Shown here: positions 1 through 35,213 of the stretch, one piece after another | Layout: each line of letters starts with the position of its first letter | Position numbering within the stretch: the stretch's first letter is position 1 | NCBI GenBank assembly: GCA_032718475.1 | Contig: JAUCBJ010001565.1 | Location: 1-35,213 of the forward strand | Length of the DNA stretch: 35,213 nt | Direction: 5' to 3' | From: Nemertoderma westbladi | Taxonomy: Eukaryota > Animalia > Xenacoelomorpha | Program-made: the position numbers and the translations under genes | The notes under the pieces: model-generated | Databases searched by the model: none | What the model saw: only the letters and a program-made list of their open reading frames with translations | What the model was told of the DNA's origin: nothing

Positions 1-1075
1 CTTTAATGGGTAACTCACCTTCCCTCCAGCTCCTAGAAGGCCCCTGAGTCATCCTTTAACGGGTAACTCACCTTCCCTCCAGCTCCTAGAAGGCCCCTGC
101 ATCATCCTTTAATGGGTAACTCACCTTCCCTCCAGCTCCTAGAAGACCCCTGAGTCATCCTTTAACGGGTAACTCACCTTCCCTCCAGCTCCTAGAAGGC
201 CCCTGCATCATCCTTTAATGGGTAACTCACCTTCCCTCCAGCTCCTAGAAGGCCCCTGCATCATCCTTTAATGGGTAACTCACCTTCCCTCCAGCTCCTA
301 GAAGGCCCCTGAGTCATCCTTTAACGGGTAACTCACCTTCCCTCCAGCTCCTGGAAGGCCCCTGCGTCATCCTTTAACGGGTAACTCACCTTCCCTCCAG
401 CTCCTAGAAGGCCCCTGCATCATCCTTTAATGGGTAACTCACCTTCCCTCCAGCTCCTAGAAGGCCCCTGAGTCATCCTTTAACGGGTAACTCACCTTCC
501 CTCCAGCTCCTAGAAGGCCCCTGCATCATCCTTTAACGGGTAACTCACCTTCCCTCCAGCTCCTAGAAGGCCCTTGCGTCATCCTTTCACGGGTAACTCA
601 CCTTCCCTCCAGCTCCTAGAAGGCCCTTGCGTCATTCTTTAACGGGTAACTCACCTTCCCTCCAGCTCCTAGAAGGCCCTTGCGTCATCCTATAATGGGT
701 GACTCACCTTCCCTCCAGCTCCTTGAAGGCCCCTGCGTCATCCTTTAACGGGTAACTCACCTTCCCTCCAGCTCCTAGAAGGCCCTTGCGTCATCCTTTC
801 ACGGGTAACTCACCTTCCCTCCAGCTCCTAGAAGGCCCTTGCGTCATTCTTTAACGGGTAACTCACCTTCCCTCCAGCTCCTGGAAGGCCCCTGCGTTAT
901 CCTTTAATGGGTAACTCACCTTCCCTCCAGCTCCTAGAAGGCCCTTGCGTCATCCTTTAACGGGTAACTCACCTTCCCTCCAGCTCCTATAAGGCCCTTG
1001 CGTCATCCTTTAACGGGTAACTCACCTTCCCTCCAGCTCCTGGAAGGCCCCTGCGTCATCCTTTAACGGGTAACT
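1..1075 (-). repeat. 53-bp tandem array made of the last 50 nt of the L1-family TM exon plus intron bases GTG; every unit contains a GAAG|GTGAGT donor; runs off the left window edge
   Basis: ACTCACCT (reverse complement of AG|GTGAGT) recurs at 13, 66, ... 1020 with a 53-bp period (20 copies). The last copy (1023-1075) contains the coding exon end. Confidence 0.97.
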
Positions 1076-9952: not shown

Positions 9953-9953
9953 A

Positions 9954-10912: not shown

Positions 10913-11144
10913 AGTTGTTGTTGTTGGCGGTGTTAATATCCAGTTAGCATTTAGTTTTATAAGGCTTCCTACAGCAACGTGTCAAAGTTGGAAAAGCGTG
11001 GGACTGAGAATCTCTAGGTACCGAGTTCAATCCCACCTTTCCGGTGAATTATTTTGGTAGTAAGATTGGTAAGCCATTCAAGGAGACAGTTCTTACGTTA
11101 GCGGTTAGTAGACGCGGACCTTTGCGCGATTTCGCGTTGTTTTT
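9954..11144 (+). mobile_element. HINE/Helentron-type non-autonomous element whose 5' terminus is tandemly amplified
   Basis: 5' subterminal AGGTCCGCGT, (GTT)4 at ~10914-10925, matching inverted ACGCGGACCT at 11112-11121, hairpin CGCGATTTCGCG at 11125-11136, then a T-tract. Confidence 0.6.
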
Positions 11145-11240
11145 ATAGCTATAAAACACGAGTGATAACTTTTGTCTAAATATAAACCATTAAATATATT
11201 TATAATAATGCACTAAGTCTATGATTATAGATAAACAGAC

Positions 11241-11426
11241 CTCAGAGACTCTCTTTTCTGATGTTCCTCCGGTTTTGAATGTAGCAATCTCCCCAGCAGC
11301 GGTGTTTTCCCTACCATTTTCATCCTTACTGTACGCGGTGACACGGGTATCGTAATCCGCTCCAGCTTCCAATCCCTCAATCATAGACTGTTGCTCCTCG
11401 TGCCACATTGGGACAGGCTCCGAAGT
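11241..11426 (-). CDS. Nrg: Exon of the same L1/neuroglian-family gene: C-terminal half of the membrane-proximal fibronectin type III domain
   Basis: TSEPVPMWHEEQQSMIEGLEAGADYDTRVTAYSKDENGRENTAAGEIATFKTGGTSEKRVSE has the FN3 I.GL..G..Y..RV.A motif. Acceptor TTTCTATTGCTAG, donor GAG|GTCTGT. 186 nt, phase 0-0, joins in frame to the exon at 1225. Confidence 0.78.
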
Positions 11427-11710
11427 CTAGCAATAGAAATTGGTGTTTCTGTTGAATACCTTTTTTTATTATAATTATATCACTACATCACTACATCACA
11501 ATCTGACAGTAACTTTATAGAAGGAATACAGCAAATTGAATAGAACAAACCGTCTTCCAAAAACAAATGCAAGTAATATCCTTTTTAACAGACTTCGGAT
11601 GTGATTAAATAACTTAATAATATGCTAAAAATCAACATTTCATTCAATTCAACATTACCAACCACTCTCACACCTCCTTACAACTCTATCAGACTTTCTG
11701 TACACTATAG

Positions 11711-11896
11711 GGGTAGGTGTAAAACGCGGATCCGGATCCGGATCCGGATTCAGGATCCGGATACGGATCAGGACCCGGATTTGCGAGTGTAAAAGGCGGA
11801 TCCGGATTTACATACAATCCGTAACTGAGTGTAATATGCGGATTCTGAAATACGCAATCCGTATTGCAGTGTAAAACGCGGATTCATATATTTTGT
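11711..11896 (+). mobile_element. Left TIR-like terminus with subterminal GTGTAAAACGCGGAT motifs
   Basis: GGGTAGGTGTAAAACGCGGATCCGGATC (11711-11738) matches the reverse complement of 31464-31491 at 26 of 28 positions. Confidence 0.7.
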
Positions 11897-13100
11897 GAAT
11901 CCGGAATGGAGTGTAAAATACGGATTTACGTTAATTACCAAGTTTTATTGGATCCGGAATGGAGTGTAAAACACGGATTTTCGTTAATTATCAAGTTTTG
12001 TTGGATCCGGAATGGAGTGTAAAACACGGATTTTCGTTAATTACCAAGTTTTGTTGGATCCGGAATGGAGTGTAAAATACGGATTTACGTTAATTACCAA
12101 GTTTTATTGGATCCGGAATGGAGTGTAAAACACGGATTTTCGTTAATTATCAAGTTTTGTTGGATCCGGAATGGAGTGTAAAACACGGATTTTCGTTAAT
12201 TACCAAGTTTTGTTGGATCCGGAATGGAGTGTAAAACACGGATTTTCGTTAATTACCAAGTTTTATTGGATCCGGAATGGAGTGTAAAACACGGATTTTC
12301 GTTAATTATCAAGTTTTGTTGGATCCGGAATGGAGTGTAAAACACGGATTTTCGTTAATTACCAAGTTTTGTTGGATCCGGAATGGAGTGTAAAACACGG
12401 ATTTTCGTTAATTACCAAGTTTTGTTGGATCCGGAATGGAGTGTAAAACACGGATTTTCGTTAATTACCAAGTTTTATTGGATCCGGAATGGAGTGTAAA
12501 ACACGGATTTTCGTTAATTATCAAGTTTTGTTGGATCCGGAATGGAGTGTAAAACACGGATTTTCGTTAATTACCAAGTTTTGTTGGATCCGGAAAGGAG
12601 TGTAATTCGTTAATTACCAAGTTTTGTTGGATCCGGAATGGAGTGTAAAACACGGATTTTCGTTAAATACCAAGTTTTGTTGGATCCGGAATGGAGTGTA
12701 AAACACGGATTTTCGTTAATTACCAAATTTTGTTGGATCCGGAATGGAGTGTAAAACACGGATTTACGTTAATTACCAAGTTTTATTGGATCCGGAATGG
12801 AGTGCAAAACACGGATTTATGTTAATTACCAAGTTTTATCGGATCCGGAATGGAGTGTAAAACACGGATTTTCGTTAATTACCAAGTTTTGTTGGATCCG
12901 GAATGGAGTGTAAAACACGGATTTTCGTTAATTACCAAGTTTTAATGGATCCGGGAAGGGGTGTAAAACGCGGATTCAATTTATTTACCAAGTGTTACTA
13001 GATCCGGGAAGGGGTGTAAAACGCAGATTGATTCAGGTTGATTACAAAAGTGTTACTGGATCCGGGAAGGGGTGTAAAATGCGGATTTACGTTAATTACT
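11897..13100 (+). repeat. 53-bp tandem array (GGATCCGGAATGGAGTGTAAAACACGGATTTTCGTTAATTACCAAGTTTTGTT)n, about 22 copies, related to the TIR motif
   Basis: GGATCC at 11950, 12003, 12056, 12109, ...; variants recur in groups of about three units; the last units are degenerate. Confidence 0.96.
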
Positions 13101-13107
13101 GAGTTTG

Positions 13108-13184: not shown

Positions 13185-16026
13185 TAATTATCAATTAAGA
13201 AAGTTAATTATTACAAACAAATAGAAATACTACAATAATGAAGCACAAATTATAAAAAGCATCTCAGAATAGAGACAAATTACAAAGGGGGCGGGGGAAT
13301 AAGAGTTATAAGGGGGAGGGGAGATGGGATAGGGGGAGCGGGGAACGCAAGTGGAGGAGCCTAGGAGACGAGGTCCAACAGACCCTCGTCCGTGGACCTA
13401 ATCGATCCTAAGATCGAAGCGGCATTGCCGATCTGAATGGCAATGAGGAGCCTCTGTAGGAGGAATCGGTGCGACCGCGGCTCGTTGGTGACACTACGTA
13501 TACGGTCGCCGATCTCCTTCAGGAAACTGCGAGTGGAAGAGCCCGGACAGCCGTAGGTCTCAAAGGCAACCGGGGAGAAGATGTAGCCCCGGTCGACTAG
13601 CTCCCGGTATTTGGCTGTTTTCTTCTCCTCAGCCACCTCCGCAACGCGACCCCCAGCAGTCAGGGCAAGGTGTATGTGGCTGGGACAAAGGGGATCTACC
13701 ACAGTCGCATCCCAAGTGACGGATTTACCATGTTTCCATGGAACCATGGTTACTCCGTCGACTCGCTTCCCGCCACTCCTGCAGAGGCCTGGAGGTTCCA
13801 GCATAGCTGGGATCCTGCAGCTGGTCAACGCACGCTTAACCAGGTCATTGACCATGGCGTGGCGTGCGTGTCGCCCAGCGCTCCTCTTACAGGAGAGGCC
13901 ATGGAGACCGTTGGGTGCGACTGGGTCGTCACAGCGGGCGCATTTGTGAGGCTCGGTGACCGGGCTACCAAGGCGTATTGCGACTGCTACTTGCAACTGC
14001 GCGCCCGTAAGTTTCAGGCCCAGCGAGCTGACCGGAATGGCCTCAAGCCAGCAACCCGACACATCGTTCTTGATACAATTTAGGCGCGCAGTATCGAGTG
14101 GCAGTGCCCCCTCGCGGATGGAAGCAAGGGACGCCTCGTGGACCGGCTGTATCAGGACACGTTGTATGGCGTCAGTGGAGGAAGTGGCAGGTGGTGTGGT
14201 GCCAGTGTGGGAAGTAACTGTGGATGTGGTGTCAGTGGGAGAAGTGAGTGATGGTGTAGGTGCGGTGGCAGTGGGAACGTGAGTGTCTGTAAAAGTTGGA
14301 AGTTGTGCGTCCCGCGCGTTGGTAGCGAGGGCAATTGCAGGATCGGGGTGGCTCCCGTCCGTTCTAAATAGGCGGCCTGAGAGATCGGAGCATGCAGCCG
14401 CTGAGGCAATGAAAGCGGAAGGAGCGAGCACGCATGCTGAACTGATCCCCAGGCCACCCATCCGAACTGGGAGACAGGCCTGGTCCCACGATTTACCCCC
14501 CATGTCACAGTTGGTGATCTCCTGGAGCGCTCCACGGAGCGTCCGATCATACTCCTTAAGGAGCTCCTGGTGTGTGAAACACGGGGCAGCCCGAAGGAAG
14601 TAGACCAGACGAGGGATGGCAAAAGCGTTCTTTAAAAGGTAGAACGCGTGGTGCGCATCCAGGAGAGGGAGTCGTTTGGCGAGGGTGGAGAGGTCGCTGA
14701 TCTTCTCGCGGAGACAGGAGACCATAGCGGAGTCGCCGATGGGTGCACCGAGCATCTCTAGATCTTCGAGCGAGGTGGTAAGGATGCCTGGGCACACCGT
14801 CTCGAACTCCGCAGCGATCTCCAGACGGATCGAATTGGAGACCTCTCCAACTATAAAAAGCTCGGTCTTCTTAGGGTTGATCTCCAACCCGAGCCGCTTC
14901 CCCTCACCCATCACCGTATGTAGGTCCTCCAACACCGTCCGGTGGTCTCCGGCAAGGTTACCATCGTCCAGGTACCAAACGTTGAAGTCAGACTTCATTG
15001 AATGGACCAGGTCGACGGAGGTGTCGCCGAAGAGGGCCGGTCCATCTGCATCACCCTGTTGAATTCCCTCTTCCGAGAGGAGTATCTCATCCCCGTGGAA
15101 AAGGTAGCTTGGCTTGCCATAGGCAGCCAGAGTGTAGTTATACACTTGAGGGTGATTTCGATGGACCGTCTCTAGGATGGAGTCACGCCGGACGGAGTTG
15201 AAGGCGTTCCGAAAGTCCAGTTTCAGTAGAACAGTGCCAGGCGCGGAGGTGGTATTGATTAACGCCCGGGTCGCGTGGGCGGCAGCCTCGGCACCGTTCT
15301 TAGTCCCGATTCCCAGTTGGACGTCCCCGTAGGACTGACTCCGATCCCCACTGACGAGGTGCCCCGAGTATTTGGATGCCAGCCGCCGGAGGGTAAGTCC
15401 GACGGCTATTGGGCGAACCCCGTTGTCAGGTTTACTGAATGCGAAGAGGTTCGCCCCGAAGAAAACCGGTCGAATAACCGGGGGAACCTCGCCAGCGAGC
15501 ACGATCTCAGTGAACCGACACAGACCTTTCAGGAGCCGAGTCGCGGGAGCTCCGTTTGAAGGATCGACGAGGTCCTTCAAGACCTGTGGCCGGAGCCCGT
15601 CCGGTCCACCTGCGCTGCCGGGCGGGAAGGAAGCGATCTTCTGCTTGAGGACCGCCGGGTAGCAGGTGGGCCGGGGGAGATCGGTGGGAGGGGGAGGGGT
15701 TCGGAAGTCAGCCGGACGGGGGGGATGCTTCCCTCGCAGTTTCTCCAACGTCTCGGGGGTATTCGGCGCGAAGGTGGAGGTGGATGAGGCCAGCCGAATA
15801 GCCCCCTTGACGTCGCCGTCCTCGATCTTCTCAGCGACGGTGGTGGCCAGCCGTTCCTCGTCGCTGAGATTGCTCCCCCGCTTGCGATGGGATGGTGAAT
15901 CCGGCGGAGCCTGCAGGGGGTTGGCGCGGAACTCCAGGATGTTCCCGTTGACCTGCAAGGCCAGGGAGCGTTGGTGACGCCCTCCAGCCCGCGCCGGTGC
16001 GGGGATACACCGGGCGCTAAAGGTCA
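13185..16026 (-). mobile_element. 5'-truncated CRE-clade (RLE) non-LTR retrotransposon
   Basis: GC-rich block with an abrupt switch to AT-rich DNA at ~16030; C-rich then T-rich 3' UTR. The 3' boundary is uncertain. Confidence 0.85.
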
Positions 16027-16029
16027 GCT
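13361..16029 (-). CDS. Reverse transcriptase plus restriction-like endonuclease (RLE) protein of a CRE-clade non-LTR retrotransposon, 5'-truncated
   Basis: RT motifs SAGGPDGLRP, KPDNGVRPIAVG, KLDFRNAFNS, GIQQGD, WYLDDG, GLEINPKK; thumb LPVRMGGLG; CCHC knuckle CARC..HGLSC; RH..VN; RLE KRVDG..WDAT..EEKKTAKY..FETYG; C-terminal IQIGNA. The frame stays open upstream of the tracked ORF start (15958) to 16029 and has no true start. Confidence 0.92.
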
Positions 16030-16977: not shown

Positions 16978-17099
16978 CTGTGGCCTCGATAGACCCCCCA
17001 CCAGTATATGTTGTTATCGCCGGTGTTGAACCCGTTATGTTTACCAATTTATTTCCTTATTGGCGCCGTGACTCGGAAATAGCAACGGCCAACCGATTG
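16978..17099 (+). CDS. SVIL: Supervillin-like exon, end of the last gelsolin-like repeat
   Basis: VASIDPPPVYVVIAGVEPVMFTNLFPYWRRDSEIATANRL resembles supervillin Y.I.AGLEP..FTN.FP.W. Acceptor TATTTTATTTTCAG, donor TTG|GTGAGT; ends in phase 0. Confidence 0.85.
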
Positions 17100-17344
17100 G
17101 TGAGTTGTGACTGACTACACACATAAATGAGTACCAGTTAAATTACTTGGGAGCAAAACATGGGATAAGAGTAGCGCCCACCCCTATTTTCGGGTAGCAG
17201 ATAGGAGTAGCGCCAACCCCAACCCCCGGGTAGCAACTATCGAAAGATGAGCCTTCGGGTCGCCTCCGGTTTCGGCCGACTGTTTGTTTGCTTGTATCGG
17301 AATTCCATTAATAATTGTATTAATATTATAAACATTTTATAAAG

Positions 17345-17509
17345 GAATACAAATTGGAACCAGATGAATTTCCCGTGCTCAAGGCAACCGATGTGTTGCG
17401 GACTTTAACAGAAATCCGTCTAACTTACCAACAGATCCTAATCCATGACCTTCCGGAGGGAGTTGACCCTCACAAGTTGGAGACCTACCTGGACGATACA
17501 GAGTTCCAG
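17345..17509 (+). CDS. SVIL: Supervillin-like exon, linker and N-terminal part of the villin headpiece
   Basis: EYKLEPDEFPVLKATDVLRTLTEIRLTYQQILIHDLPEGVDPHKLETYLDDTEFQ contains the LPEGVDP.KLE.YL motif. Acceptor TTTTATAAAG, donor CAG|GTTAGT; 165 nt, phase 0-0. Confidence 0.9.
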
Positions 17510-20500
17510 GTTAGTCGGAGACCTACCTGGACGATACAGAGTTCTAGGTTAGTTGGAGACCTACCTAGACGATACAGAGTTCCAGGTTAGTTGGAGACCT
17601 ACCTGGACGATACAGAGTTCCAGGTTAGTTGGAGACCTACCTGGACGATACAGAGGGTCAGGTTAGTTGGGAAACCTACCTGGACGATACAGAGTTCCAG
17701 GTTAGTTGGAGACCTACCTGGACGATACAGAGTTCCAGGTTAGTTGGAGGCCTACCTGGACGATACAGAGTTCCAGGTTAGTTGGAGACCTACCTGGACG
17801 ATACAGAGTTCCAGGTTAGTTGGAGACCTACCTGGACGATACAGAGTTCCAGGTTAGTTGGAGACCTACCTGGACGATACAGAGTTCCAGGTTAGTTGGA
17901 GACCTACCTGGACGATACAGAGTTCCACGTTAGTTGGAGACCTACCTGGACGATACAGAGTTCCAGGTTAGTTGGAGACCTACCTGGACGATACAGAGTT
18001 CCAGGTTAGTTGGAGACCTACCTGGACGATACAGAGTTCCAGGTTAGTTGGAGACCTACCTGGACGATACAGAGTTCCAGGTTAGTTGGAGACCTACCTG
18101 GACGATACAGAGTTCCAGGTTAGTTGGGGACCTACCTGGACGATACAGAGTTCCAGCAGGTTAGTTGGAGACCTGGACGATACAGAGTTCCAGGTTAGTT
18201 GGAGACCTACCTGGACGATACAGAGTTCCAGGTTAGTTGGAGACCTACCTGGACGATACAGAGTTCTAGGTTAGTTGGAGACCTGTACGATACAGAGTTC
18301 CAGGTTAGTTGGAGACCTACCTGGACGATACAGAGTTCCAGGTTAGTTGGAGACCTACCTGGACGATACAGAGTTCCAGGTTAGTTGGAGACCTACCGGG
18401 ACGATACAGAGTTCCATGTTAGTTGGAGACCTACCTGGACGATACAGAGTTCCAGGTTAGTTGGAGACCTACCGGGACGATACAGAGTTCCAGGTTAGTT
18501 GGAGACCTACCTGGACGATACAGAGTTCCAGGTTAGTTGGGGACCTACCTGGACGATACAGAGTTCCAGAAGGTTAGTTGGAGACCTGGACGATACAGAG
18601 TTCCAGGTTAGTTGGAGACCTACCTGGACGATACAGAGTTCCAGGTTAGTTGGAGACCTACCTGGACGATACAGAGTTCCAGGTTAGTTGGAGACCTACC
18701 TGGACGATACAGAGTTCCAGGTTAGTTGGAGACCTACCTGGACGATACAGAGTTCCAGGTTAGTTGGAGACCTACCTGGACGATTCAGAGTTCCAGGTTA
18801 GTTGGAGACCTACCTGGACGATACAGAGTTCCAGGTTAGTTGGAGACCTACCTGGACGATACAGAGTTCCAGGTTAGTTGGAGACCTACCTGGACGATAC
18901 AGAGTTCCAGGTTAGTTGGAGACCTACCTGGACGATACAGAGTTCTAGGTTAGTTGGAGACCTACCTGGACGATACAGAGTTCCAGGTTAGTTGGAGACC
19001 TACCTGGACGATACAGAGTTCCAGGTTAGTTGGAGACCTACCTGGACGATACAGAGTTCCAGGTTAGTTGGAGACCTACCTGGACGATACAGAGTTCCAG
19101 GTTAGTTGGAGACCTACCTGGACGATACAGAGTTCCAGGTTAGTTGGAGACCTACCTGGACGATACAGAGTTCCAGGTTAGTTGGGGACCTACCTGGACG
19201 ATACAGAGTTCCAGCAGGTTAGTTGGAGACCTGGACGATACAGAGTTCCAGGTTAGTTGGAGACCTACCTGGACGATACAGAGTTCCAGGTTAGTTGGAG
19301 ACCTACCTGGACGATACAGAGTTCTAGGTTAGTTGGAGACCTGGACGATACAGAGTTCCAGGTTAGTCGGAGACCTACCTGGACGATACAGAGTTCTAGG
19401 TTAGTTGGAGACCTACCTGGACGATACAGAGTTCCAGGTTAGTTGGAGACCTACCTGGACGATACAGAGTTCCAGGTTAGTTGGAGACCTACCTGGACGA
19501 TACAGAGGGTCAGGTTAGTTGGGGACCTACCTGGACGATACAAAGTTCCAGGTTAGTTGGAGACCTACCTGGACGATACAGAGTTCCAGGTTAGTTGGAG
19601 GCCTACCTGGACGATACAGAGTTCCAGGTTAGTTGGAGACCTACCTGGACGATATAGAGTTCCAGGTTAGTTGGAGACCTACCTGGACGATACAGAGTTC
19701 CAGGTTAGTTGGAGACCTACCTGGACGATACAGAGTTCCAGGTTAGTTGGAGACCTACCTGGACGATACAGAGTTCCAGGTTAGTTGGAGACCTACCTGG
19801 ACGATACAGAGTTCCACGTTAGTTGGAGACCTACCTGGACGATACAGAGTTCCAAGTTAGTTGGAGACCTACCTGGACGATACAGAGTTCCAGGTTAGTT
19901 GGAGACCTACCTGGACGATACAGAGTTCCAGGTTAGTTGGAGACCTACCTGGACGATACAGAGTTCCAGGTTAGTTGGAGACCTACCTGGACGATACAGA
20001 GTTCCAGGTTAGTTGGGGACCTACCTGGACGATACAGAGTTCCAGCAGGTTAGTTGGAGACCTGGACGATACAGAGTTCCAGGTTAGTTGGAGACCTACC
20101 TGGACGATACAGAGTTCCAGGTTAGTTGGAGACCTACCTGGACGATACAGAGTTCTAGGTTAGTTGGAGACCTGTACGATACAGAGTTCCAGGTTAGTTG
20201 GAGACCTACCTGGACGATACAGAGTTCCAGGTTAGTTGGAGACCTACCTGGACGATACAGAGTTCCAGGTTAGTTGGAGACCTACCGGGACGATACAGAG
20301 TTCCATGTTAGTTGGAGACCTACCTGGACGATACAGAGTTCCAGGTTAGTTGGAGACCTACCGGGACGATACAGAGTTCCAGGTTAGTTGGAGACCTACC
20401 TGGACGATACAGAGTTCCAGGTTAGTTGGGGACCTACCTGGACGATACAGAGTTCCAGAAGGTTAGTTGGAGACCTGGACGATACAGAGTTCCAGGTTAG

Positions 20501-23500
20501 TTGGAGACCTACCTGGACGATACAGAGTTCCAGGTTAGTTGGAGACCTACCTGGACGATACAGAGTTCCAGGTTAGTTGGAGACCTACCTGGACGATACA
20601 GAGTTCCAGGTTAGTTGGAGACCTACCTGGACGATACAGAGTTCCAGGTTAGTTGGAGACCTACCTGGACGATACAGAGTTCCAGGTTAGTTGGAGACCT
20701 ACCTGGACGATACAGAGTTCCAGGTTAGTTGGAGACCTACCTGGACGATACAGAGTTCCAGGTTAGTTGGAGACCTACCTGGACGATACAGAGTTCTAGG
20801 TTAGTTGGAGACCTACCTGGACGATACAGAGTTCCAGGTTAGTTGGAGACCTACCTGGACGATACAGAGTTCCAGGTTAGTTGGGGACCTACCTGGACGA
20901 TACAGAGTTCCAGGTTAGTTGGAGACCTACCTGGACGATACAGAGTTCCAGGTTAGTTGGAGACCTACCGGGACGATACAGAGTTCCAGGTTAGTTGGAG
21001 ACCTACCTGGACGATACAGAGTTCCAGGTTAGTCGGAGACCTACCTGGACGATACAGAGTTCCAGGTTAGTTGGAGACCTACCTGGACGATACAGAGTTC
21101 CAGGTTAGTTGGAGACCTACCTGGACGATACAGAGTTCCAGGTTAGTTGGAGACCTACCTGGACGATACAGAGTTCCAGGTTAGTTGGAGACCTACCTGG
21201 ACGATACAGAGTTCCAGGTTAGTTGGAGACCTACCTGGACGATACAGAGTTCCAGGTTAGTTGGGGACCTACCTGGACGATACAGAGTTCCAGCAGGTTA
21301 GTTGGAGACCTGGACGATACAGAGTTCCAGGTTAGTTGGAGACCTACCTGGACGATACAGAGTTCCAGGTTAGTTGGAGACCTACCTGGACGATACAGAG
21401 TTCTAGGTTAGTTGGAGACCTGGACGATACAGAGTTCCAGGTTAGTCGGAGACCTACCTGGACGATACAGAGTTCTAGGTTAGTTGGAGACCTACCTGGA
21501 CGATACAGAGTTCCAGGTTAGTTGGAGACCTACCTGGACGATACAGAGTTCCAGGTTAGTTGGAGACCTACCTGGACGATACAGAGGGTCAGGTTAGTTG
21601 GGGACCTACCTGGACGATACAGAGTTCCAGGTTAGTTGGAGACCTACCTGGACGATACAGAGTTCCAGGTTAGTTGGAGACCTACCTGGACGATACAGAG
21701 TTCCAGGTTAGTTGGAGACCTACCTGGACGATACAGAGTTCTAGGTTAGTTGGAGACCTACCTGGACGATACAGAGTTCCAGGTTAGTTGGAGACCTACC
21801 TGGACGATACAGAGTTCCAGGTTAGTTGGAGACCTACCTGGACGATACAGAGTTCCAGGTTAGTTGGAGACCTACCTGGACGATACAGAGTTCTAGGTTA
21901 GTTGGAGACCTGTACGATACAGAGTTCCAGGTTAGTTGGAGACCTACCTGGACGATACAGAGTTCTAGGTTAGTTGGAGACCTGGACGATACAGAGTTCC
22001 AGGTTAGTTGGAGACCTACCTGGACGATACAGAGTTCCAGGTTAGTTGGAGACCTACCTGGATGATACAGAGTTCCAGGTTAGTTGGAGACCTACCTGGA
22101 CGATACAGAGTTCCAGGTTAGTTGGAGACCTACCTGGACGATACAGAGTTCCAGGTTAGTTGGAGACCTACCTGGACGATACAGAGTTCCAGGTTAGTTG
22201 GGGACCTACCTGGACGATACAGAGTTCCAGCAGGTTAGTTGGAGACCTGGACGATACAGAGTTCCAGGTTAGTTGGAGACCTACCTGGACGATACAGAGT
22301 TCCAGGTTAGTTGGAGACCTACCTGGACGATACAGAGTTCTAGGTTAGTTGGAGACCTGTACGATACAGAGTTCCAGGTTAGTTGGAGACCTACCTGGAC
22401 GATACAGAGTTCCAGGTTAGTTGGAGACCTACCTGGACGATACAGAGTTCCAGGTTAGTTGGAGACCTACCGGGACGATACAGAGTTCCATGTTAGTTGG
22501 AGACCTACCTGGACGATACAGAGTTCCAGGTTAGTTGGAGACCTACCTGGACGATACAGAGTTCCAGGTTAGTTGGGGACCTACCTGGACGATACAGAGT
22601 TCCAGAAGGTTAGTTGGAGACCTGGACGATGCAGAGTTCCAGGTTAGTTGGAGACCTACCGGGACGATACAGAGTTCCAGGTTAGTTGGAGACCTACCTG
22701 GACGATACAGAGTTCCAGGTTAGTCGGAGACCTACCTGGACGATACAGAGTTCCAGGTTAGTTGGAGACCTACCTGGACGATACAGAGTTCCAGGTTAGT
22801 TGGAGACCTACCTGGACGATACAGAGTTCCAGGTTAGTTGGAGACCTACCTGGACGATACAGAGTTCCAGGTTAGTTGGAGACCTACCTGGACGATACAG
22901 AGTTCCAGGTTAGTTGGAGACCTACCTGGACGATACAGAGTTCCAGGTTAGTTGGAGACCTACCTGGACGATACAGAGTTCTAGGTTAGTTGGAGACCTA
23001 CCTGGACGATACAGAGTTCCAGGTTAGTTGGAGACCTACCTGGACGATACAGAGTTCCAGGATAGTTGGAGACCTACCTGGACGATACAGAGTTCCAGGT
23101 TAGTTGGAGACCTACCTGGACGATACAGAGTTCCAGGTTAGTTGGAGACCTACCTGGACGATACAGAGTTCCAGAAGGTTAGTTGGAGACCTGGACGATA
23201 CAGAGTTCCAGGTTAGTTGGAGACCTACCTGGACGATACAGAGTTCCAGGTTAGTTGGAGACCTACCTGGACGATACAGAGTTCCAGGTTAGTTGGAGAC
23301 CTACCTGGACGATACAGAGTTCCAGGTTAGTTGGAGACCTACCTGGACGATACAGAGTTCCAGGTTAGTTGGAGACCTACCTGGACGATTCAGAGTTCCA
23401 GGTTAGTTGGAGACCTACCTGGACGATACAGAGTTCCAGGTTAGTTGGAGACCTACCTGGACGATACAGAGTTCCAGGTTAGTTGGAGACCTACCTGGAC

Positions 23501-26500
23501 GATACAGAGTTCCAGGTTAGTTGGAGACCTACCTGGACGATACAGAGTTCTAGGTTAGTTGGAGACCTACCTGGACGATACAGAGTTCCAGGTTAGTTGG
23601 AGACCTACCTGGACGATACAGAGTTCCAGGTTAGTTGGAGACCTACCTGGACGATACAGAGTTCTAGGTTAGTTGGAGACCTGGACGATACAGAGTTCCA
23701 GGTTAGTCGGAGACCTACCTGGACGATACAGAGTTCCAGGTTAGTTGGAGACCTACCTGGACGATACAGAGTTCCAGGTTAGTTGGAGACCTACCTGGAC
23801 GATACAGAGTTCCAGGTTAGTTGGAGACCTACCTGGACGATACAGAGTTCCAGGTTAGTTGGGGACCTACCTGGACGATACAGAGTTCCAGCAGGTTAGT
23901 TGGAGACCTGGACGATACAGAGTTCCAGGTTAGTTGGAGACCTACCTGGACGATACAGAGTTCCAGGTTAGTTGGAGACCTACCTGGACGATACAGAGTT
24001 CTAGGTTAGTTGGAGACCTGTACGATACAGAGTTCCAGGTTAGTTGGAGACCTACCTGGACGATACAGAGTTCCAGGTTAGTTGGAGACCTACCTGGACG
24101 ATACAGAGTTCCAGGTTAGTTGGAGACCTACCTGGACGATACAGAGTTCCAGGTTAGTTGGAGACCTACCTGGACGATACAGAGTTCCAGGTTAGTTGGA
24201 GACCTACCTGGACGATACAGAGTTCTAGGTTAGTTGGAGACCTGTACGATACAGAGTTCCAGGTTAGTTGGAGACCTACCTGGACGATACAGAGTTCCAG
24301 GTTAGTTGGAGACCTACCTGGACGATACAGAGTTCCAGGTTAGTTGGAGACCTACCTGGACGATACAGAGTTCTAGGTTAGTTGGAGACATACCTGGACG
24401 ATACAGAGTTCCAGGTTAGTTGGAGACCTACCTGGACGATACAGAGTTCCAGGTTAGTTGGAGACCTACCTGCACGATACAGAGTTCCAGGTTAGTTGGA
24501 GACCTACCGGGACGATACAGAGTTCCATGTTAGTTGGAGACCTACCTGGACGATACAGAGTTCCAGGTTAGTTGGAGACCTACCTGGACGATACAGAGTT
24601 CCAGGTTAGTTGGGGACCTACCTGGACGATACAGAGTTCCAGAAGGTTAGTTGGAGACCTGGACGATACAGAGTTCCAGGTTAGTTGGAGACCTACCGGG
24701 ACGATACAGAGTTCCAGGTTAGTTGGAGACCTACCTGGACGATACAGAGTTCCAGGTTAGTTGGAGACCTACCTGGACGATACAGAGTTCCATGTTAGTT
24801 GGAGACCTACCTGGACGATACAGAGTTCCAGGTTAGTTGGAGACCTACCTGGACGATACAGAGTTCCAGGTTAGTTGGAGACTTACCTGGACGATACAGA
24901 GTTCCAGGTTAGTTGGAGACCTACCTGGACGATACAGAGTTCCAGGTTAGTTGGAGACCTACCTGGACGATACAGAGTTCCAGGTTAGTTGGAGACCTAC
25001 CTGGGCGATACAGAGTTCCAGGTTAGTTGGAGACCTACCTGGACGATACAGAGTTCAAGCAGGTTAGTTGGAGACCTACCTGGGCGATACAGAGTTCCAG
25101 GTTAGTTGGAGACCTACCTGGACGATACAGAGTTCCAGAAGGTTAGTTGGAGACCTACCGGGACGATACAGAGTTCCAGGTTAGTTGGAGACCTACCGGG
25201 ACGATACAGAGTTCCATGTTAGTTGGAGACCAACCTGGACGATACAGAGTTCCAGGTTAGTTGGAGACCTACCTGTACGATACAGAGTTCCAGGTTAGTT
25301 GGAGACCTACCTGGACGATACAGAGTTCCAGGTTAGTTGGAGACCTGGACGATACAGAGTTCCAGGTTAGTTGGAGACCTACCTGGACGATATAGAGTTC
25401 CAGGTTAGTTGGAGACCTACCTGGACGATACAGAGTTCCAGGTTAGTTGGAGACCTACCTGGACGATACAGAGTTCCAGGTTAGTTGGAGACCTACCTGG
25501 ACGATACAGAGTTCCAGGTTAGTTGGAGACCTACCTGGACGATACAGAGTTCCAGGTTAGTTGGAGACCTACCTGGACGATACAGAGTTCCAGGTTAGTT
25601 GGAGACCTACCTGGACGATACAGAGTTCCAGGTTAGTTGGAGACCTACCTGGATGATACAGAGTTCCAGGTTAGTTGGAGACCTACCTGGACGATACAGA
25701 GTTCCAGGTTAGTTGGAGACCTACCTGGACGATACAGAGTTCCAGGTTAGTTGGGGACCTACCTGGACGATACAGAGTTCCAGCAGGTTAGTTGGAGACC
25801 TGGACGATACAGAGTTCCAGGTTAGTTGGAGACCTACCTGGACGATACAGAGTTCCAGGTTAGTTGGAGACCTACCTGGACGATACAGAGTTCTAGGTTA
25901 GTTGGAGACCTGTACGATACAGAGTTCCAGGTTAGTTGGAGGCCTACCTGGACGATACAGAGTTCCAGGTTAGTTGGAGACCTACCTGGACGATATAGAG
26001 TTCCAGGTTAGTTGGAGACCTACCTGGACGATACAGAGTTCCAGGTTAGTTGGAGACCTACCTGGACGATACAGAGTTCCAGGTTAGTTGGAGACCTACC
26101 TGGACGATACAGAGTTCCAGGTTAGTTGGAGACCTACCTGGACGATACAGAGTTCCAGGTTAGTTGGAGACCTACCTGGACGATACAGAGTTCCAGGTTA
26201 GTTGGAGACCTACCTGGACGATACAGAGTTCCAGGTTAGTTGGAGACCTACCTGGACGATACAGAGTTCCAGGTTAGTTGGAGACCTACCTGGACGATAC
26301 AGAGTTCCAGGTTAGTTGGAGACCTACCTGGACGATACAGAGTTCCAGGTTAGTTGGGGACCTACCTGGACGATACAGAGTTCCAGCAGGTTAGTTGGAG
26401 ACCTGGACGATACAGAGTTCCAGGTTAGTTGGAGACCTACCTGGACGATACAGAGTTCCAGGTTAGTTGGAGACCTACCTGGACGATACAGAGTTCTAGG

Positions 26501-29012
26501 TTAGTTGGAGACCTGTACGATACAGAGTTCCAGGTTAGTTGGAGGCCTACCTGGACGATACAGAGTTCCAGGTTAGTTGGAGACCTACCTGGACGATATA
26601 GAGTTCCAGGTTAGTTGGAGACCTACCTGGACGATACAGAGTTCCAGGTTAGTTGGAGACCTACCTGGACGATACAGAGTTCCAGGTTAGTTGGAGACCT
26701 ACCTGGACGATACAGAGTTCCAGGTTAGTTGGAGACCTACCTGGACGATACAGAGTTCCAGGTTAGTTGGAGACCTACCTGGACGATACAGAGTTCCAGG
26801 TTAGTTGGAGACCTACCTGGACGATACAGAGTTCCAGGTTAGTTGGAGACCTACCTGGACGATACAGAGTTCCAGGTTAGTTGGAGACCTACCTGGACGA
26901 TACAGAGTTCTAGGTTAGTTGGAGACCTGGACGATACAGAGTTCCAGGTTAGTTGGAGACCTACCTGGACGATACAGAGTTCCAGGTTAGTTGGAGACCT
27001 ACCTGGACGATACAGAGTTCCAGGTTAGTTAGAGACCTACCGGGACGATACAGAGTTCCATGTTAGTTGGAGACCTACCTGGACGATACAGAGTTCCAGG
27101 TTAGTTGGAGACCTACCTGGACGATACAGAGTTCCAGGTTAGTTGGGGACCTACCTGGACGATACAGAGTTCCAGAAGGTTAGTTGGAGACCTGGACGAT
27201 ACAGAGTTCCAGGTTAGTTGGAGACCTACCGGGACGATACAGAGTTCCAGGTTAGTTGGAGACCTACCTGGACGATACAGAGTTCCAGGTTAGTCGGAGA
27301 CCTACCTGGACGATACAGAGTTCCAGGTTAGTTGGAGACCTACCTGGACGATACAGAGTTCCAGGTTAGTTGGAGACCTACCTGGACGATACAGAGTTCC
27401 AGGTTAGTTGGAGACCTACCTGGACGATACAGAGTTCCAGGTTAGTTGGAGACCTACCTGGACGATACAGAGTTCCAGGTTAGTTGGAGACCTACCTGGA
27501 CGATACAGAGTTCCAGGTTAGTTGGAGACCTACCTGGACGATACAGAGTTCTAGGTTAGTTGTAGACCTACCTGGACGATACAGAGTTCCAGGTTAGTTG
27601 GAGACCTACCTGGACGATACAGAGTTCCAGGTTAGTTGGAGACCTACCTGGACGATACAGAGTTCCAGGTTAGTTGGAGACCTACCTGGACGATACAGAG
27701 TTCCAGGTTAGTTGGAGACCTACCTGGACGATACAGAGTTCCAGAAGGTTAGTTGGAGACCTGGACGATACAGAGTTCCAGGTTAGTTGGAGACCTACCT
27801 GGACGATACAGAGTTCCAGGTTAGTTGGAGACCTACCTGGACGATACAGAGTTCCAGGTTAGTTGGAGACCTACCTGGACGATACAGAGTTCCAGGTTAG
27901 TTGGAGACCTACCTGGACGATACAGAGTTCCAGGTTAGTTGGAGACCTACCTGGACGATTCAGAGTTCCAGGTTAGTTGGAGACCTACCTGGACGATACA
28001 GAGTTCCAGGTTAGTTGGAGACCTACCTGGACGATACAGAGTTCCAGGTTAGTTGGAGACCTACCTGGACGATACAGAGTTCCAGGTTAGTTGGAGACCT
28101 ACCTGGACGATACAGAGTTCTAGGTTAGTTGGAGACCTACCTGGACGATACAGAGTTCCAGGTTAGTTGGAGACCTACCTGGACGATACAGAGTTCCAGG
28201 TTAGTTGGAGACCTACCTGGACGATACAGAGTTCTAGGTTAGTTGGAGACCTGGACGATACAGAGTTCCAGGTTAGTCGGAGACCTACCTGGACGATACA
28301 GAGTTCCAGGTTAGTTGGAGACCTACCTGGACGATACAGAGTTCCAGGTTAGTTGGGTACCTACCTGGACGATACAGAGTTCCAGAAGGTTAGTTGGAGA
28401 CCTGGACGATACAGAGTTCCAGGTTAGTTGGAGACCTACCGGGACGATACAGAGTTCCAGGTTAGTTGGAGACCTACCTGGACGATACAGAGTTCCAGGT
28501 TAGTTGGAGACCTACCTGGACGATACAGAGTTCCAGGTTAGTTGGAGACCTACCTGGACGATACAGAGTTCCAGAAGGTTAGTTGGAGACCTACCGGGAC
28601 GATACAGAGTTCCATGTTAGTTGGAGACCTACCTGGACGATACAGAGTTCCATGTTAGTTGGAGACCTACCTGGACGATACAGAGTTCCATGTTAGTTGG
28701 AGACCTACCTGGACGATACAGAGTTCCAGGTTAGTTGGAGACCTACCTGGACGATACAGAGTTCCAGGTTAGTTGGAGACCTACCGGGACGATACAGAGT
28801 TCCATGTTAGTTGGAGACCTACCTGGACGATACAGAGTTCCATGTTAGTTGGAGACCTACCTGGACGATACAGAGTTCCAGGTTAGTTGGAGACCTACCT
28901 GGACGATACAGAGTTCCAGGTTAGTTGGAGACCTACCTGGACGATACAGAGTTCCAGGTTAGTTGGAGACCAACCTGGACGATACAGAGTTCCAGGTTAG
29001 TTGGGGACCTAC
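17475..29012 (+). repeat. 38-bp satellite (AGTTGGAGACCTACCTGGACGATACAGAGTTCCAGGTT)n, about 300 copies, made of the last 35 nt of the exon plus intron bases GTT
   Basis: 11,538 bp of near-identical units; the first unit is the coding exon end; nearly all units carry a YAG|GTTAGT site. Confidence 0.98.
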
Positions 29013-29139
29013 ATACATGCCTTATATCTAGCTATATGTAACAGCCAATAGGGGGATCTTCGGGTTGTCTCCGGTGTTTCACAAGTTCACGGATCTCTTT
29101 ACTTTTTTTAAACTGGAAAATACAGAGTTCCAGTTTTTA

Positions 29140-29212
29140 TAACATTGTTTATATTTCTACAGGAGGTGACCTCTTTGTAACATCGTTTATATTTCTACAG
29201 GAGGTGACTTCT
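29140..29212 (+). repeat. Two-copy 38-bp duplication spanning the 3' splice acceptor of the terminal supervillin-like exon
   Basis: TAACAT(T/C)GTTTATATTTCTACAG|GAGGTGAC(C/T)TCT occurs twice; the AG dinucleotides end at 29162 and 29200. Confidence 0.92.
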
Positions 29213-29287
29213 ATGACTCGAGATGAATTCATGGCTCTTGCTGAATGGCGACAATTCCAATTGAAGAAAGAGAAACATTTGTTTTAG
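29201..29287 (+). CDS. SVIL: Terminal coding exon of the supervillin-like gene, C-terminal villin headpiece
   Basis: EVTSMTRDEFMALAEWRQFQLKKEKHLF* is the headpiece M.R.EF..L..W.Q..LKKEK.LF motif; in frame with exon 17345-17509; absent from the ORF track. Confidence 0.93.
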   Translation, partial: EVTSMTRDEFMALAEWRQFQLKKEKHLF

Positions 29288-29486
29288 TTGATTTTTATTT
29301 TATTGTTTCATTCCATTTTTCTTTTATACTACTTATATCAGCAATCCAATCCACCTTTTTGTTGCCTTCTCTATTTTATCTATCTTATATTTTAATTGAG
29401 TATTTTTTTATTTCTGCTATTCCAATAGACTAGCCATATAACAATCAATCTATATTTTATTGCTTTAAATATATTGTTTATTATTT

Positions 29487-29492
29487 AATAAA
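29487..29492 (+). promoter_or_regulatory. Candidate polyadenylation signal AATAAA of the supervillin-like transcript
   Basis: First AATAAA after the stop codon; the region is AT-rich and other copies occur downstream. Confidence 0.3.
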
Positions 29493-30098
29493 ATCGCATA
29501 TAAAGTTAGGTATTCATTAGGTTTGGATTATTATGGTTTATAGCAATTACAATATTGCTTACAAACTGGTTTGTTACTCAACTAAATAGTTATTATCCAC
29601 CTGGTGCCTTTTAATCAAAATCTTTTGTTGTTCATTTTGTGCAATTTATATAATTATGCTGATAATTTTACATTCCCATTTTAGATTATTGTTATTGTAT
29701 GTTAGTAGTAATGGGTTATATTATTGGCGTTTATTGAATTGAATAGAATGGAACATAATTCATAATTTGAGTTTTTTTAATTCCTCGATTTAATAAATAT
29801 TATAAGACAAAGGAAGATCAGGGCAACTTCTAGTATTAACATTAAAATGCAGAGCAGTGGAGATCATTACAACGCACACAATAAATACCCAGTAAAAATG
29901 TATAAAGAAATTCTGTTTTAAAAAATACAAGACTGGTAGATATTATATTTTACTTTGCATTGAAGTATTTAATAAATAGCAAATGTATTGGGTTGTTTTT
30001 GTAAGGTAATTTAATATTGTTGACGTGTCATCAACATTGAATTTTGTCGATAAGCCGGCACAGCATTCTTAAAAATGCAGCTGGGTCAATAAGCTTAA

Positions 30099-32091: not shown

Positions 32092-32324
32092 TGTGGCGGA
32101 GTCACAATTACTGGACAATACTCTAAATAGTAGGACCTATCTCACCTCCCCATATAGCTGAGATTAGGACTACAGCTGTTAGTACATAGTGAGATTGGTA
32201 TGTTGCTTAGCAACTTAACAACAACACCAGGATAATCAGCTTATCTGACAGCGCTGACCATATTAATATAACAACTTACTGAGAATCAAATTAATATGTT
32301 TTAACGATATTGTAAGTTGCTACA
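32092..32324 (+). repeat. 5' LTR (233 bp, TG...CA)
   Basis: TGTGGCGGAGTCAC...GTTGCTACA, repeated from 35006. Confidence 0.95.
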
Positions 32325-32325
32325 T

Positions 32326-32339
32326 TGGTGACCCGGCGT
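32326..32339 (+). promoter_or_regulatory. Primer-binding site, tRNA-Trp-like
   Basis: TGGTGACCCGGCGT, one base after the LTR, resembles the complement of the tRNA-Trp 3' end (TGGTGACCCCGACGT). Confidence 0.75.
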
Positions 32340-32421
32340 CTCAAAACGAATTTTTGAGAAAACCCCAAAAGAACCGATGCGACCGAATCACTAACGAACT
32401 TTCTCAACCAAATCAACAACC

Positions 32422-32725
32422 ATGGTTGAAGCGAACGCAGTCTCCCTGAAACTCCCCTCCTTCTGGACTTCCCAGCCTGAGGTATGGTTCGCCCAGGCCG
32501 AGGCACAATTTAATATCCGTAGTATCATAGCGGACGACACGAAGTACTACTACGTCGTGGGTGCTTTGGACCAAGACACCGCCAGCCGGCTCCTCAACCT
32601 AATACGAGATCCTCCAGCCGGAGATAAATATAACTCCCTAAAGGCGAAACTCATTAAAACATACAGCCTCTCACGGCGCGACCGTGCCGCAAGGCTCTGG
32701 GACCTAAACGGACTCGGCGATCCTC
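32422..32725 (+). pseudogene. gag: gag N-terminal portion, truncated by deletion
   Basis: MVEANAVSLKLPSFWTSQPEVWFAQAEAQF...TKYYYVVGALD; gag-like sequence stops after LNGLGD; no zinc knuckle or protease follows. Confidence 0.85.
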
Positions 32726-33950
32726 TCGATCCCATGTGGACAGACCCGGGGCCACGCCCTCCACCTTAGTTCTATAGCTGCCTCCAATGACGAGTTCGCC
32801 CAGATACTTGCCGAATATCCTGACATTACAGTACCACGGTTTTCTGACCCGACCGCGAAACACGGCGTGGAGCACTACATCCCCACGCAGGGACCTCCCG
32901 TGCACGCCCACGCCCGTCGCCTACCTCCAGATAAACTGGAAATCGCGAGGGAGGAGTTCCGCAAAATGGAAGAGATGGGGATCATCCGCTGGTCCAACAG
33001 TCCCTGGGCGTCGCCCCTCCACATGGCCCCCAAACCCTCGGGCGGTTGGCGGCCGTGTGGCGACTACCGACGACTTAACGACGCCACAACTCCGGACCGA
33101 TACCCCATCCCCCACATCCAGGACTTCTCCTCCCGACTGGCAGGTGCGAAGATCTTCTCGAAGATCGATCTGGTGCGCGGCTACCACCAGATCCCTGTCA
33201 CAGAAGCCGACATCGCCAAGACTGCGGTCATCACCCCGTTCGGACTGTTCGAGTTCCTTCGGATGCCGTTCGGGCTGAAGAACGCAGCCCAGGCCTTCCA
33301 GAGACTGATGGACACGGTGTGCCAGGGACTCGACTTCATATTTGTTTCCCTCGATGACATTCTCGTTGCAAGTCGGTCCAAGTCGGAGCACCGTGAACAC
33401 CTCCATCAGCTCTTCATGCGCCTTCAACACCAAGGCCTTGTTATCAACCTGGCAAAATGTCAGTTTGGTCGTGAAACAATCGACTTCCTTGGCCACCGTA
33501 TTTCAACTCACGGTGCCGTTCCGCTCCCCGACAAGGTCGCCGCCATCCGGGAGTTTACACAGCCAACCACGGTGAAAGGCCTACAGGAGTTTGTGGGGAT
33601 GGTAAACTTTTACCATCGGTTCGTCCCCTCCGCTGCTGACATCATGCGACCCCTCTATGCGGCCCTGGCGGGGAAACCCAAAACACTAAACTGGACTCCC
33701 AACATGGATCACGCATTCCAGATCGCAAAGGATGCCCTCGCCAATGCGACGATGTGAACTCATCCCAACACCAACGCCCACACAGCACTCACAGTGGACG
33801 CATCAGGTACAGCAGTGGGTGCTGTTCTAGAACAACTCATCGGTAACTCATGGCGCCCCCTTGCGTTCTTTAGCCGCCAACTACGTCCCCCGGAAGTCAA
33901 ATATAGTGCATTCGACCGGGAGCTGCTTGCGCTGTACCTAGCAGTCCGCC
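32726..33950 (+). pseudogene. pol: pol reverse transcriptase and partial RNase H, inactivated
   Basis: [42 protein letters not shown]; YxDD reads SLDD; in-frame TGA at 33755-33757; RNase H DASGTAVGAVLEQ...YSAFDRELLALYLAVR is then cut off. Confidence 0.92.
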
Positions 33951-33963
33951 AAGGTCCTAGGTC

Positions 33964-34980
33964 GCCTCCAAGGTGCAACGCAACATACGTGCACCCCTCG
34001 GCACCTTCGCAACCCCTCACCGCCGATTCGACCACATACATGTTGATCTCGTTGGTCCTCTACCACCATCACACGGTTTCACCCACCTGCTGACGATTGT
34101 GGACCGCTTCACTCGGTGGCCAGAGGCTGTACCCCTCAGCGAAACTTCCACAGAGAGCTGTGCGCGTGCACTCATTTCGACATGGATCGCCCGATTCGGT
34201 GTTCCAGCCGATCTCTCATCGGACCGGGGTTCACAATTCACCTCCCACCTCTGGTCGGCCATCAACAAGCTGCTGGGCACCCAACTACACCGCACCACCG
34301 CGTATCACCCACAGGCGAATGGACTGGTAGAACGGTTTCACCGTCATCTCAAGTCTGCCCTTCGAGCCTCTCTCGACAACCCTGATTGGGTAGACGCATT
34401 ACCATGGGTGCTTCTCGGAATCCGGACAGCACCCAAGGACGACTTAGGAACCTCCTCCGCCGAGCTCGTTTATGGTGCTCCGCTCACTGTCCCGGGAGAG
34501 TTCCTACCACCGTCTATAGAAACCCAACACACCCCGTCAACAATACTTCCCCAACTTCGTCAAGTGGTTGGGCGTTTTGTTCCGGTTCCCACATCACGCC
34601 ATGGTTTGACTTCGTCGTCAGTTCCCCCGGGCCTACAGAACGCCACCTACGTCTTCATCCGACGCGATGCCCACCGGACACCGCTAGAACGGCCCTATGA
34701 GGGCCCCTACAGGGTTCTCGAAACTGGAACAAAAACGTTCAAGATTGAGATGGGGGGTCGTACCGAAACAGTTTCGGTCGACCGACTGAAACCAGCACAT
34801 CTTGACATAACTAAACCTGTCACCCTTGCCCATCCACGGCGCCGTGGTCGACCACCTAACCCTATTCCGGTTCCCATACAACCAGCGGCTCCGAATAAAA
34901 TTGTCCCATCACAGAGCCCACCCTTAGCGCCCACACAAACTCGGTCAGGACGAACAATCCACCCGCCGGACTATTTGTAA
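33964..34980 (+). pseudogene. pol: Integrase core and C-terminal region, HHCC zinc finger deleted
   Basis: HIHVDLVGPLP, SDRGSQF, HPQANGLVERFH (DDE triad), PYEGPYRV, VSVDRLKP. Confidence 0.9.
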
Positions 34981-34994
34981 ACTATTTCGAGTCT

Positions 34995-35002
34995 GGGGGG
35001 GG
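34995..35002 (+). promoter_or_regulatory. Polypurine tract
   Basis: G8 run ending three bases before the 3' LTR. Confidence 0.75.
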
Positions 35003-35005
35003 TCA

Positions 35006-35213
35006 TGTGGCGGAGTCACAATTACTGGACAATACTCTAAATAGTAGGACCTATCTCACCTCCCCATATAGCTGAGATTAGGACTACAGCTGTTAGTACA
35101 TAGGAGATTGGTATGTTGCTTAGCAACATAACAACAACACTAGTATAATCAGCTTATCTGACAGCGCTGACCGTATTAATATAACAACTTACTGAGAATC
35201 AAATTAATATGTT
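35006..35213 (+). repeat. 3' LTR, cut by the window edge
   Basis: Matches the 5' LTR with about four substitutions and one 1-bp indel over 208 bp. Confidence 0.95.

Follow-up and report, generated by a model that had tools for sequence, protein, structure and literature searches.

A 38-bp minisatellite spanning an exon/donor boundary occupies the last intron of a supervillin-like gene in Nemertoderma westbladi

Two genes on opposite strands

The window analysed here, that is, the whole stretch of DNA under study, comprises 35,213 nt of the forward strand of Nemertoderma westbladi contig JAUCBJ010001565.1 (GCA_032718475.1). It carries exons of a supervillin-like gene on the plus strand and of an L1/neuroglian-like gene on the minus strand, each adjoining a tandem array that contains its own splice donor. 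Both flanks of the larger array, with one or two units each, were compared with contigs from X1 to X4, the four of the eight listed runs that contain the stretch; all four consist of assembled contigs, in which rare forms are dropped and depth is no true copy number. The features, with the evidence for each, are as follows.

1..1075, minus strand: 53-bp donor array of at least 20 copies, running off the window (unit listing)
1026-1225 and about 11240-11427, minus strand: L1-like exons (homology)
16978..17099, plus strand: supervillin-like coding exon, end of the last gelsolin-type repeat (X2 contig; tblastn with P0011)
17345..17509, plus strand: 165-nt coding exon, first half of the headpiece (PDB match; X2 contig, no differences)
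17475..29012, plus strand: 38-bp minisatellite, about 305 copies (TRF; unit cutting)
17510..17515, plus strand: donor 1, GTTAGT, used in the probable X2 transcript (X2 contig mapping)
17510..29200, plus strand: intron of 11,691 bp (limits from the X2 contig)
17588..17590, plus strand: in-frame TAG on read-through past donor 3 (reading frame)
29013..29112, strand not assigned: 100-bp insert splitting the last array unit (unit halves flank it in register)
29113..29133, plus strand: remainder of the last unit, matching at 19 of 21 bases, no GT after it (sequence match)
29136..29211, plus strand: duplicated acceptor, two 38-bp copies, with exon starts at 29163 (A1) and 29201 (A2) (sequence; contigs)
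29201..29762, plus strand: final exon, coding for the rest of the headpiece and carrying the 3' UTR as far as the poly(A) site (Pfam; X2 contig)

The three plus-strand exons match P0011, a bivalve gelsolin and VHP protein of 1146 aa. Exon 16978-17099, the one exon of the gelsolin-type part that lies upstream of the headpiece exons in the window, matches it at 52% over 33 aa (tblastn, E 1.5e-7); the top solved-structure match of exon 17345-17509 is supervillin 2k6m (PDB, E 6.5e-4), and the last exon, with its stop codon at 29285-29287, is recognised as Pfam VHP (E 9.1e-9; 35.6 bits against a cut-off of 27). Judged by these homologies, the gene is a supervillin-like member of the villin/gelsolin family with a C-terminal villin headpiece. 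No further supervillin exons were found within the window by tblastn with P0011 and its relatives, protein word-index searches with the two upstream exons returned no matches, and an Atlas comparison gave no match reaching 0.8.

A first-pass annotation of this DNA had taken the KKEK region of the headpiece to be the F-actin-binding surface. That is roughly right, and the available part of a study of the headpiece (PMC7525818) narrows the residues for actin bundling to the first lysine, W, K/R and the terminal F (W815, K816, K821, F827). By spacing, their counterparts here are W, R, K and F, and all four lie in the last exon, beyond the array.

The position at which the headpiece is split could be compared among 13 HMMER hits, from which P0003 and P0008 were excluded as unlike the others and P0012 lacked the motif. 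Among the ten homologues with the motif, six have F[E/Q]V and after it, at the position of the intron, either a stop or a tail of unrelated sequence, two read on into the headpiece and two diverge in another way. Because six of the ten diverge at F[E/Q]V, as if their gene calls had run into the GT, this intron position is likely to be old.

The gene on the minus strand has as its homologue P0001, which contains FN3 and PF13882. Its transmembrane exon adjoins the 53-bp array, whose unit is the end of that exon plus GTGAGT: in each of the 20 units listed, GTGAGT follows the exon end, the units are joined at the donor's AGT, and read-through meets an immediate stop. The build is the same as that of the 38-bp array, 16 kb away in the other gene. 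Further L1-like exons were sought in 51 frames of the window and none gave an FN3 or Ig match, a weak test in that the FN3 control itself reached only E 0.019. With no other exon of either gene found in the window, either the 3' ends of the two genes are interleaved over more than 30 kb or a breakpoint is present; if they are interleaved, the 38-bp array also lies within an L1-like intron.

Structure of the donor array and its intron

TRF reports a period of 38 with 305.4 copies and 94% matches over 17475-29012. The consensus unit, found as such at 17701-17738, consists of 33 exon bases followed by GTTAG, and the array starts inside the exon, at the AGTT common to exon and donor, with the final 35 bases of exon 17345-17509 constituting unit 1. 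The array fills 98% of the last intron of the supervillin-like gene, which is made up of 11,503 bp of array, 100 bp of insert, 21 bp of unit remnant, 29 bp of acceptor tract and 38 bp of acceptor duplicate. The first-pass annotation had described about 300 copies of the donor in an intron with less than 200 bp of non-array sequence, and both statements are borne out, with 305 donor-like sites counted and 188 bp remaining after the array (29013-29200).

The donors themselves are well preserved. CAG/GTTAGT is read at 254 of the 305 sites, 25 have TAG and 10 AAG before the junction, 15 are without the -1 G, and one has GA in place of GT. Since AG/GTTAGT is retained at 289 of the 305, the array donors are not being purged; loss of the donor motif was sought across all of these sites and not seen. 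When the array is cut at the donor, 253 of the 304 units have 38 bases, 31 have 34, 19 have 41 and one has 39, and the 38-base units diverge from the consensus by 1.1%. Blocks of variants, 16-21 units in length, reappear at distances of 16, 50 and 121 units, and no repeated block exceeds 21 units. The array contains 1053 distinct 31-mers, with the consensus 31-mers present 177-207 times each. The recurring blocks and the number of distinct 31-mers argue for biological turnover rather than a looped assembly. Head-to-tail units, a real exon/intron boundary, a repeated splice signal and internal turnover are thus all found together, as in a boundary-spanning minisatellite.

At the downstream end the last unit is interrupted by the 100-bp insert at 29013-29112, likely a piece of a dispersed repeat; X1, X3 and X4 contigs match parts of it and then continue unlike the window. 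The second half of the unit (29113-29133) follows in register; elsewhere, among 46,744 positions, the best match to it reaches 14 of 21 bases. Immediately after this half comes the 29-base acceptor tract. Given that no GT stands after this remnant and that the acceptor tract directly adjoins it, the ancestral donor has probably been deleted, and the donor now working is likely to be the duplication junction.

With so little of the intron outside the repeats (29 bases beyond array, insert and duplicate), and with a spliced junction that reads CAG/G, one might suppose that the duplication created the intron itself, as a gain from an AG/G proto-splice site. We consider this extremely improbable: homologues already point to an intron at this position, six of the ten breaking off after F[E/Q]V at the same place, and the T-rich acceptor tract is not exon-derived.

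Donor choice, acceptors and variation among samples

The evidence on donor choice comes from an X2 contig of 1141 nt (depth 171.3) that contains three exons, skips both introns GT..AG and has a poly(A) end. Its positions 725-845 correspond to 16978-17098 and 558-724 to 17344-17510 (reverse), in both cases without differences and with 245 bases skipped GT..AG after 17098; positions 24-561 correspond to 29762-29198, with the contig terminating in an A run behind 29762. The mappings overlap by four bases, CAGG, which are present at both the 17510 and the 29198 sides, and that a single X2 contig crosses both flanks was judged from equal length, equal depth and this overlap. The resulting junction, 17509 to 29201, joins donor 1 to the exon-proximal acceptor, and gives the intron the same limits, 17510-29200, as the first-pass annotation had placed from the letters.

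The X2 run is labelled 'DNA?', and we infer its RNA nature: two GT..AG skips and an A run make the contig probably RNA. A retrocopy was considered as its source; X2 has no cover on unique intron stretches that are covered by the DNA runs, and the contig stops at the A run, which makes RNA more likely. In the X2 individual, then, the supervillin-like gene is likely expressed and donor 1 likely used. A poly(A)-ended probable transcript speaks against an untranscribed, dead duplicate, which had been named at the outset as the finding that would undo the case. It had been proposed further that the spliceosome must choose the most upstream of about 300 donors or that the array silences the headpiece. 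The first agrees with the X2 contig, which runs unbroken from the exon through 17509 to 29201, albeit as one contig from another individual than that of the window and perhaps from a short allele; for silencing we found no support, and retain it below as a rival for long alleles. UTR differences from the window are common to all four runs, and none of them is therefore the window haplotype.

The X2 contig is likewise unbroken through the 35-base stretch common to exon and array, where, given how contigs are built, abundant alternative forms should have interrupted it. No X2 contig matched the intronic part of the unit, although contigs cannot show absence, and the unique exon part 17305-17457 has no contig cover in X1, X3 or X4, so that the passage from exon to array is not seen in those DNA runs, a coverage gap that proves nothing.

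Donor 1 makes 8 of 11 pairs with the U1 consensus, the same as 254 of the 305 sites. Its unpaired fraction by prediction, 0.22, equals the array median of 0.22; the predicted fold of the array donors contained no RNA structure feature that singles it out. With equal U1 match and equal predicted accessibility, donor 1 is set apart by position only. It sits 165 nt from the upstream acceptor.

The acceptor is duplicated as well. In the window its two 38-bp copies are identical at 35 of 38 bases, with A1 38 bp upstream of A2, and each has 7 T and 9 pyrimidines in 12 bases. Contigs of X3 and X4 skip 38 bases and have one copy, whereas X1 yields acceptor contigs of unit after unit, with depths of 108.7 and 177.6 against 26.6 in the adjoining exon, from which X1 is likely to have at least seven copies. 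Acceptor number therefore differs between samples, one in X3 and X4 and two in the window, with seven or more likely in X1. That the same 38-bp period occurs at both ends of the intron may be chance; the other minisatellites in the window have periods of 13, 29, 36, 40, 53 and 53.

The second acceptor changes the reckoning of reading frames. When the acceptor is that at 29201, use of donor 2 or 3 shifts the frame and use of donor 4 or any later one takes in the TAG at 17588-17590, just as first noted. The accompanying statement that donor 1 alone yields the KKEKHLF end holds with this acceptor and fails with the other, for donor 3 joined to the acceptor at 29163 stays in frame, adds 38 residues and also ends KKEKHLF, the frame being restored because both periods are 38. 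Donor 1 joined to A1 reaches a stop after five residues, in the last exon. For donor 5 and every later donor joined to the acceptor at 29201, the stop lies at least 71 nt ahead of the last junction; for donors 2-4 it falls in the last exon or within 33 nt of it.

These frames are what would give array length an effect, if long alleles often mis-spliced, products of downstream donors were degraded, and less headpiece-bearing supervillin were made as the array grew. The copies do match donor 1 by sequence and predicted fold, the stops from donor 5 onward lie 71 nt or more before the junction, and the X2 allele may be short; in the available text of the respective papers, moreover, ABCA7 splicing depends on repeat length (PMC5954066), and CBS and 6-16 splice from a second and a third donor too, according to work cited in PMC1557585. 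We nevertheless think this unlikely. Products of donors 2-4 should survive, yet the X2 contig is unbroken through donor 1; F7 minigenes use the most upstream site only, so far as the available part of that paper goes (PMC1557585); and a long array seems to be present in X4, from a separate study.

A stepwise removal of the intron, in which each CAG/GTTAGT served as a recursive splice site and the same donor was always rebuilt, would yield the very mRNA seen in X2, and every intact unit has CAG directly before the donor. It is very improbable all the same: of the 12 bases that precede CAG in the sense unit, 3 are T and 6 are pyrimidines, where five true acceptors of the window have 5-10 T, and another AG stands 9 bases upstream. 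The arrangement of branch point and pyrimidine tract before an AG and then a donor is not found on the sense strand.

At the acceptor end, alleles with two or more acceptors might use the upstream one, and the protein would then end five residues into the last exon without its actin-binding residues. First-AG scanning is widely accepted for 3' splice sites, A1 and A2 are equal in T (7) and pyrimidines (9) of 12, acceptor number varies between samples, and donor 1 with A1 does stop in the last exon. Against this, the X2 transcript enters at the exon-proximal position, though the X2 allele may have a single acceptor, and an allele with amplified acceptors exists in X1; in the lancelet globin BflGb6, moreover, 3-6 acceptor copies go with normal splicing in the part of the report available (PMC3087553). 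We hold such an effect to be distinctly unlikely.

The donor array also varies. Relative to the flank, the single deepest listed unit contig stands at 20x in X1, 20x in X3 and 115x in X4, values that are a rough guide only, and the array likely varies several-fold to about tenfold among animals, an estimate from contig depth that gives no copy number. X4 seems to carry a long array, and a unit variant with a 4-base deletion recurs in its contigs; an X3 contig runs from the last unit via the 100-bp insert into the last exon. Depth of about 20x in X1 and X3, set beside consensus 31-mers present 177-207 times in the window, would fit an array length that is an assembly artefact, and the lack of any further supervillin or L1-like exon, which requires interleaved genes or a breakpoint, would fit a gene copy that is a dead duplicate or a rearranged piece. 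Either is quite improbable: the 1053 distinct 31-mers and the absence of any identical block longer than 21 units are unlike a collapsed or looped assembly, X4 stands at about 115x and shares the deletion variant, and the two upstream exons are identical to the transcript.

Two further differences among samples were seen in passing. A 24-bp UTR duplication at 29291-29314 is present in the window and X1 and absent from X2, X3 and X4, and X1 and X3 bear the same sample code yet differ both there and at the acceptor.

Interpretation and precedents

We consider it probable that the array is a length-variable minisatellite that arose by slippage duplication over the exon/donor boundary, and that the cell ignores the copies by using the donor nearest the upstream acceptor. 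The first duplication would have come about through AG(TT) microhomology, with unequal exchange then amplifying blocks of units. Exon definition, or oriented scanning, over the 165-nt exon could fix the choice of donor 1 ahead of any competition from later copies, as for human F7. Any product of donor 5 or a later one would be a likely target of degradation, its stop standing more than 50 nt ahead of the last junction, whereas errors at donors 2-4 would escape such degradation. With donor 1 working, loss of the ancestral donor, and of most of the original intron with it, would have carried no cost, and once that donor was lost at least one junction copy would have to stay. The copies themselves would then be near neutral, a sign of a genome prone to such repeats.

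Several systems described elsewhere are built in a similar way. In human F7 intron 7, according to the available part of Borensztajn et al. 2006 (PMC1557585), a 37-bp VNTR contains downstream donors that are functional yet unused, only the most upstream being used, and in minigenes donor use fades with distance. As here, unit 1 spans the exon/intron boundary, identical donors follow and length is variable; F7 differs in having 5-9 copies with 4 exon and 33 intron bases, where the present array has 305 copies with 33 exon and 5 intron bases and a duplicated acceptor in addition. Given this precedent the choice of donor 1 is of small surprise, and a most-upstream-donor rule acting on a long allele is, by analogy, the likely mechanism here.

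Amphioxus 'mirage' minisatellites, reported for Adh3, the globins BflGb6 and BflGb9, troponin C and PGBD5 (Ebner et al. 2010, PMC3087553; PMC3902484; both in part), resemble this intron in placing arrays at 5' or 3' boundaries, in occurring several per genome, in their unstable length and in turnover within a cluster, and their mRNA is normal. They have 2-7 copies, with 5' and 3' cases in separate genes, whereas here both ends of one intron are affected and the donor array is 11.5 kb. From the citing text in PMC1557585, itself available in part, minisatellites of LMNB2, CBS intron 13, 6-16 and PDGF also reiterate an exon/intron junction, and by its title the LMNB2 paper describes a repeat that, like this one, covers most of its intron; these differ in having 10-25 copies, and CBS and 6-16 use two downstream donors too. 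A narrow literature search found no single intron with arrays at both ends and the original donor gone. Boundary-spanning minisatellites are already known, and this array is likely an unusually large, harmless example.

The study of the human ABCA7 VNTR is reportedly that of De Roeck et al. 2018. In the portion of the paper available (PMC5954066), the 25-bp repeat of ABCA7 intron 18 has alleles to 10.7 kb, about 427 units, and a second donor is used at some level. Each of its units starts with a donor GT and its size is comparable; it differs in that the unit is intronic and that exon skipping and disease risk are linked to its length, a kind of effect that is only hypothetical here.

A functional reading can be put together for the present locus from both ends and both strands of the intron. 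On the minus strand, 229 units read ACTAAC, 18 bases and CAG/GTAGGT, a row of branch point, acceptor and donor that makes them candidate recursive splice sites; the motif arises partly because the reverse complement of the donor is a branch-point sequence. The locus might thus be a two-ended, two-stranded splice-site VNTR, in which donor and acceptor copy number would set the share of supervillin with an actin-binding headpiece (A1 truncating without decay, donor 3 with A1 restoring the frame) and the array would give an antisense L1-like pre-mRNA about 230 recursive sites of branch point and AG/GT. We regard this as doubtful.

On the preferred reading, that of slippage copies which splicing ignores, the array is an extreme natural allele series for asking whether 'most upstream donor' holds with 300 equal donors and several equal acceptors. 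Wild animals appear to have one to several acceptor copies, and junction counts in genotyped animals could put the rule to the test without constructs. The lost ancestral donor would illustrate that a splice site can be supplanted by repeats of this kind, and irreversibly. Should splicing be unaffected, the array is a curiosity. Both arrays end inside the AGT of their donor, the unit closing at a donor position between +3 and +7 in each. Two of them within 35 kb suggest that this genome makes them often, which is relevant to annotation.

The window is rich in other repeats. An 888-aa open frame on the minus strand (13361-16027) matches the reverse transcriptase family RVT_1 (Pfam, E 4e-13), carries a cysteine/histidine and nuclease-like region at its C terminus, and belongs to an element that we take to be a CRE-type non-LTR retrotransposon. 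In the LTR retrotransposon at 32092-35213 the 209-bp repeats share 97.6% identity, and the frames (gag, RT, RNase H, integrase-like) are broken into pieces. A dispersed repeat of very high copy number, with a 36-bp duplication inside it, lies at 17148-17294, and part of it recurs inverted at 9748-9830; the flank that contains it drew thousands of contigs from the four runs, with a summed depth there in the hundreds of thousands. Other dispersed repeats form inverted pairs, one at 1507-1761 and 3571-3824 (95% alike) and one at 6053-6286 and 7623-7852 (87% alike), and minisatellites of 13, 40 and 53 bp occur at 2446-2690, 9949-10916 and 11891-13106, with no exon boundary evident by eye at their ends.
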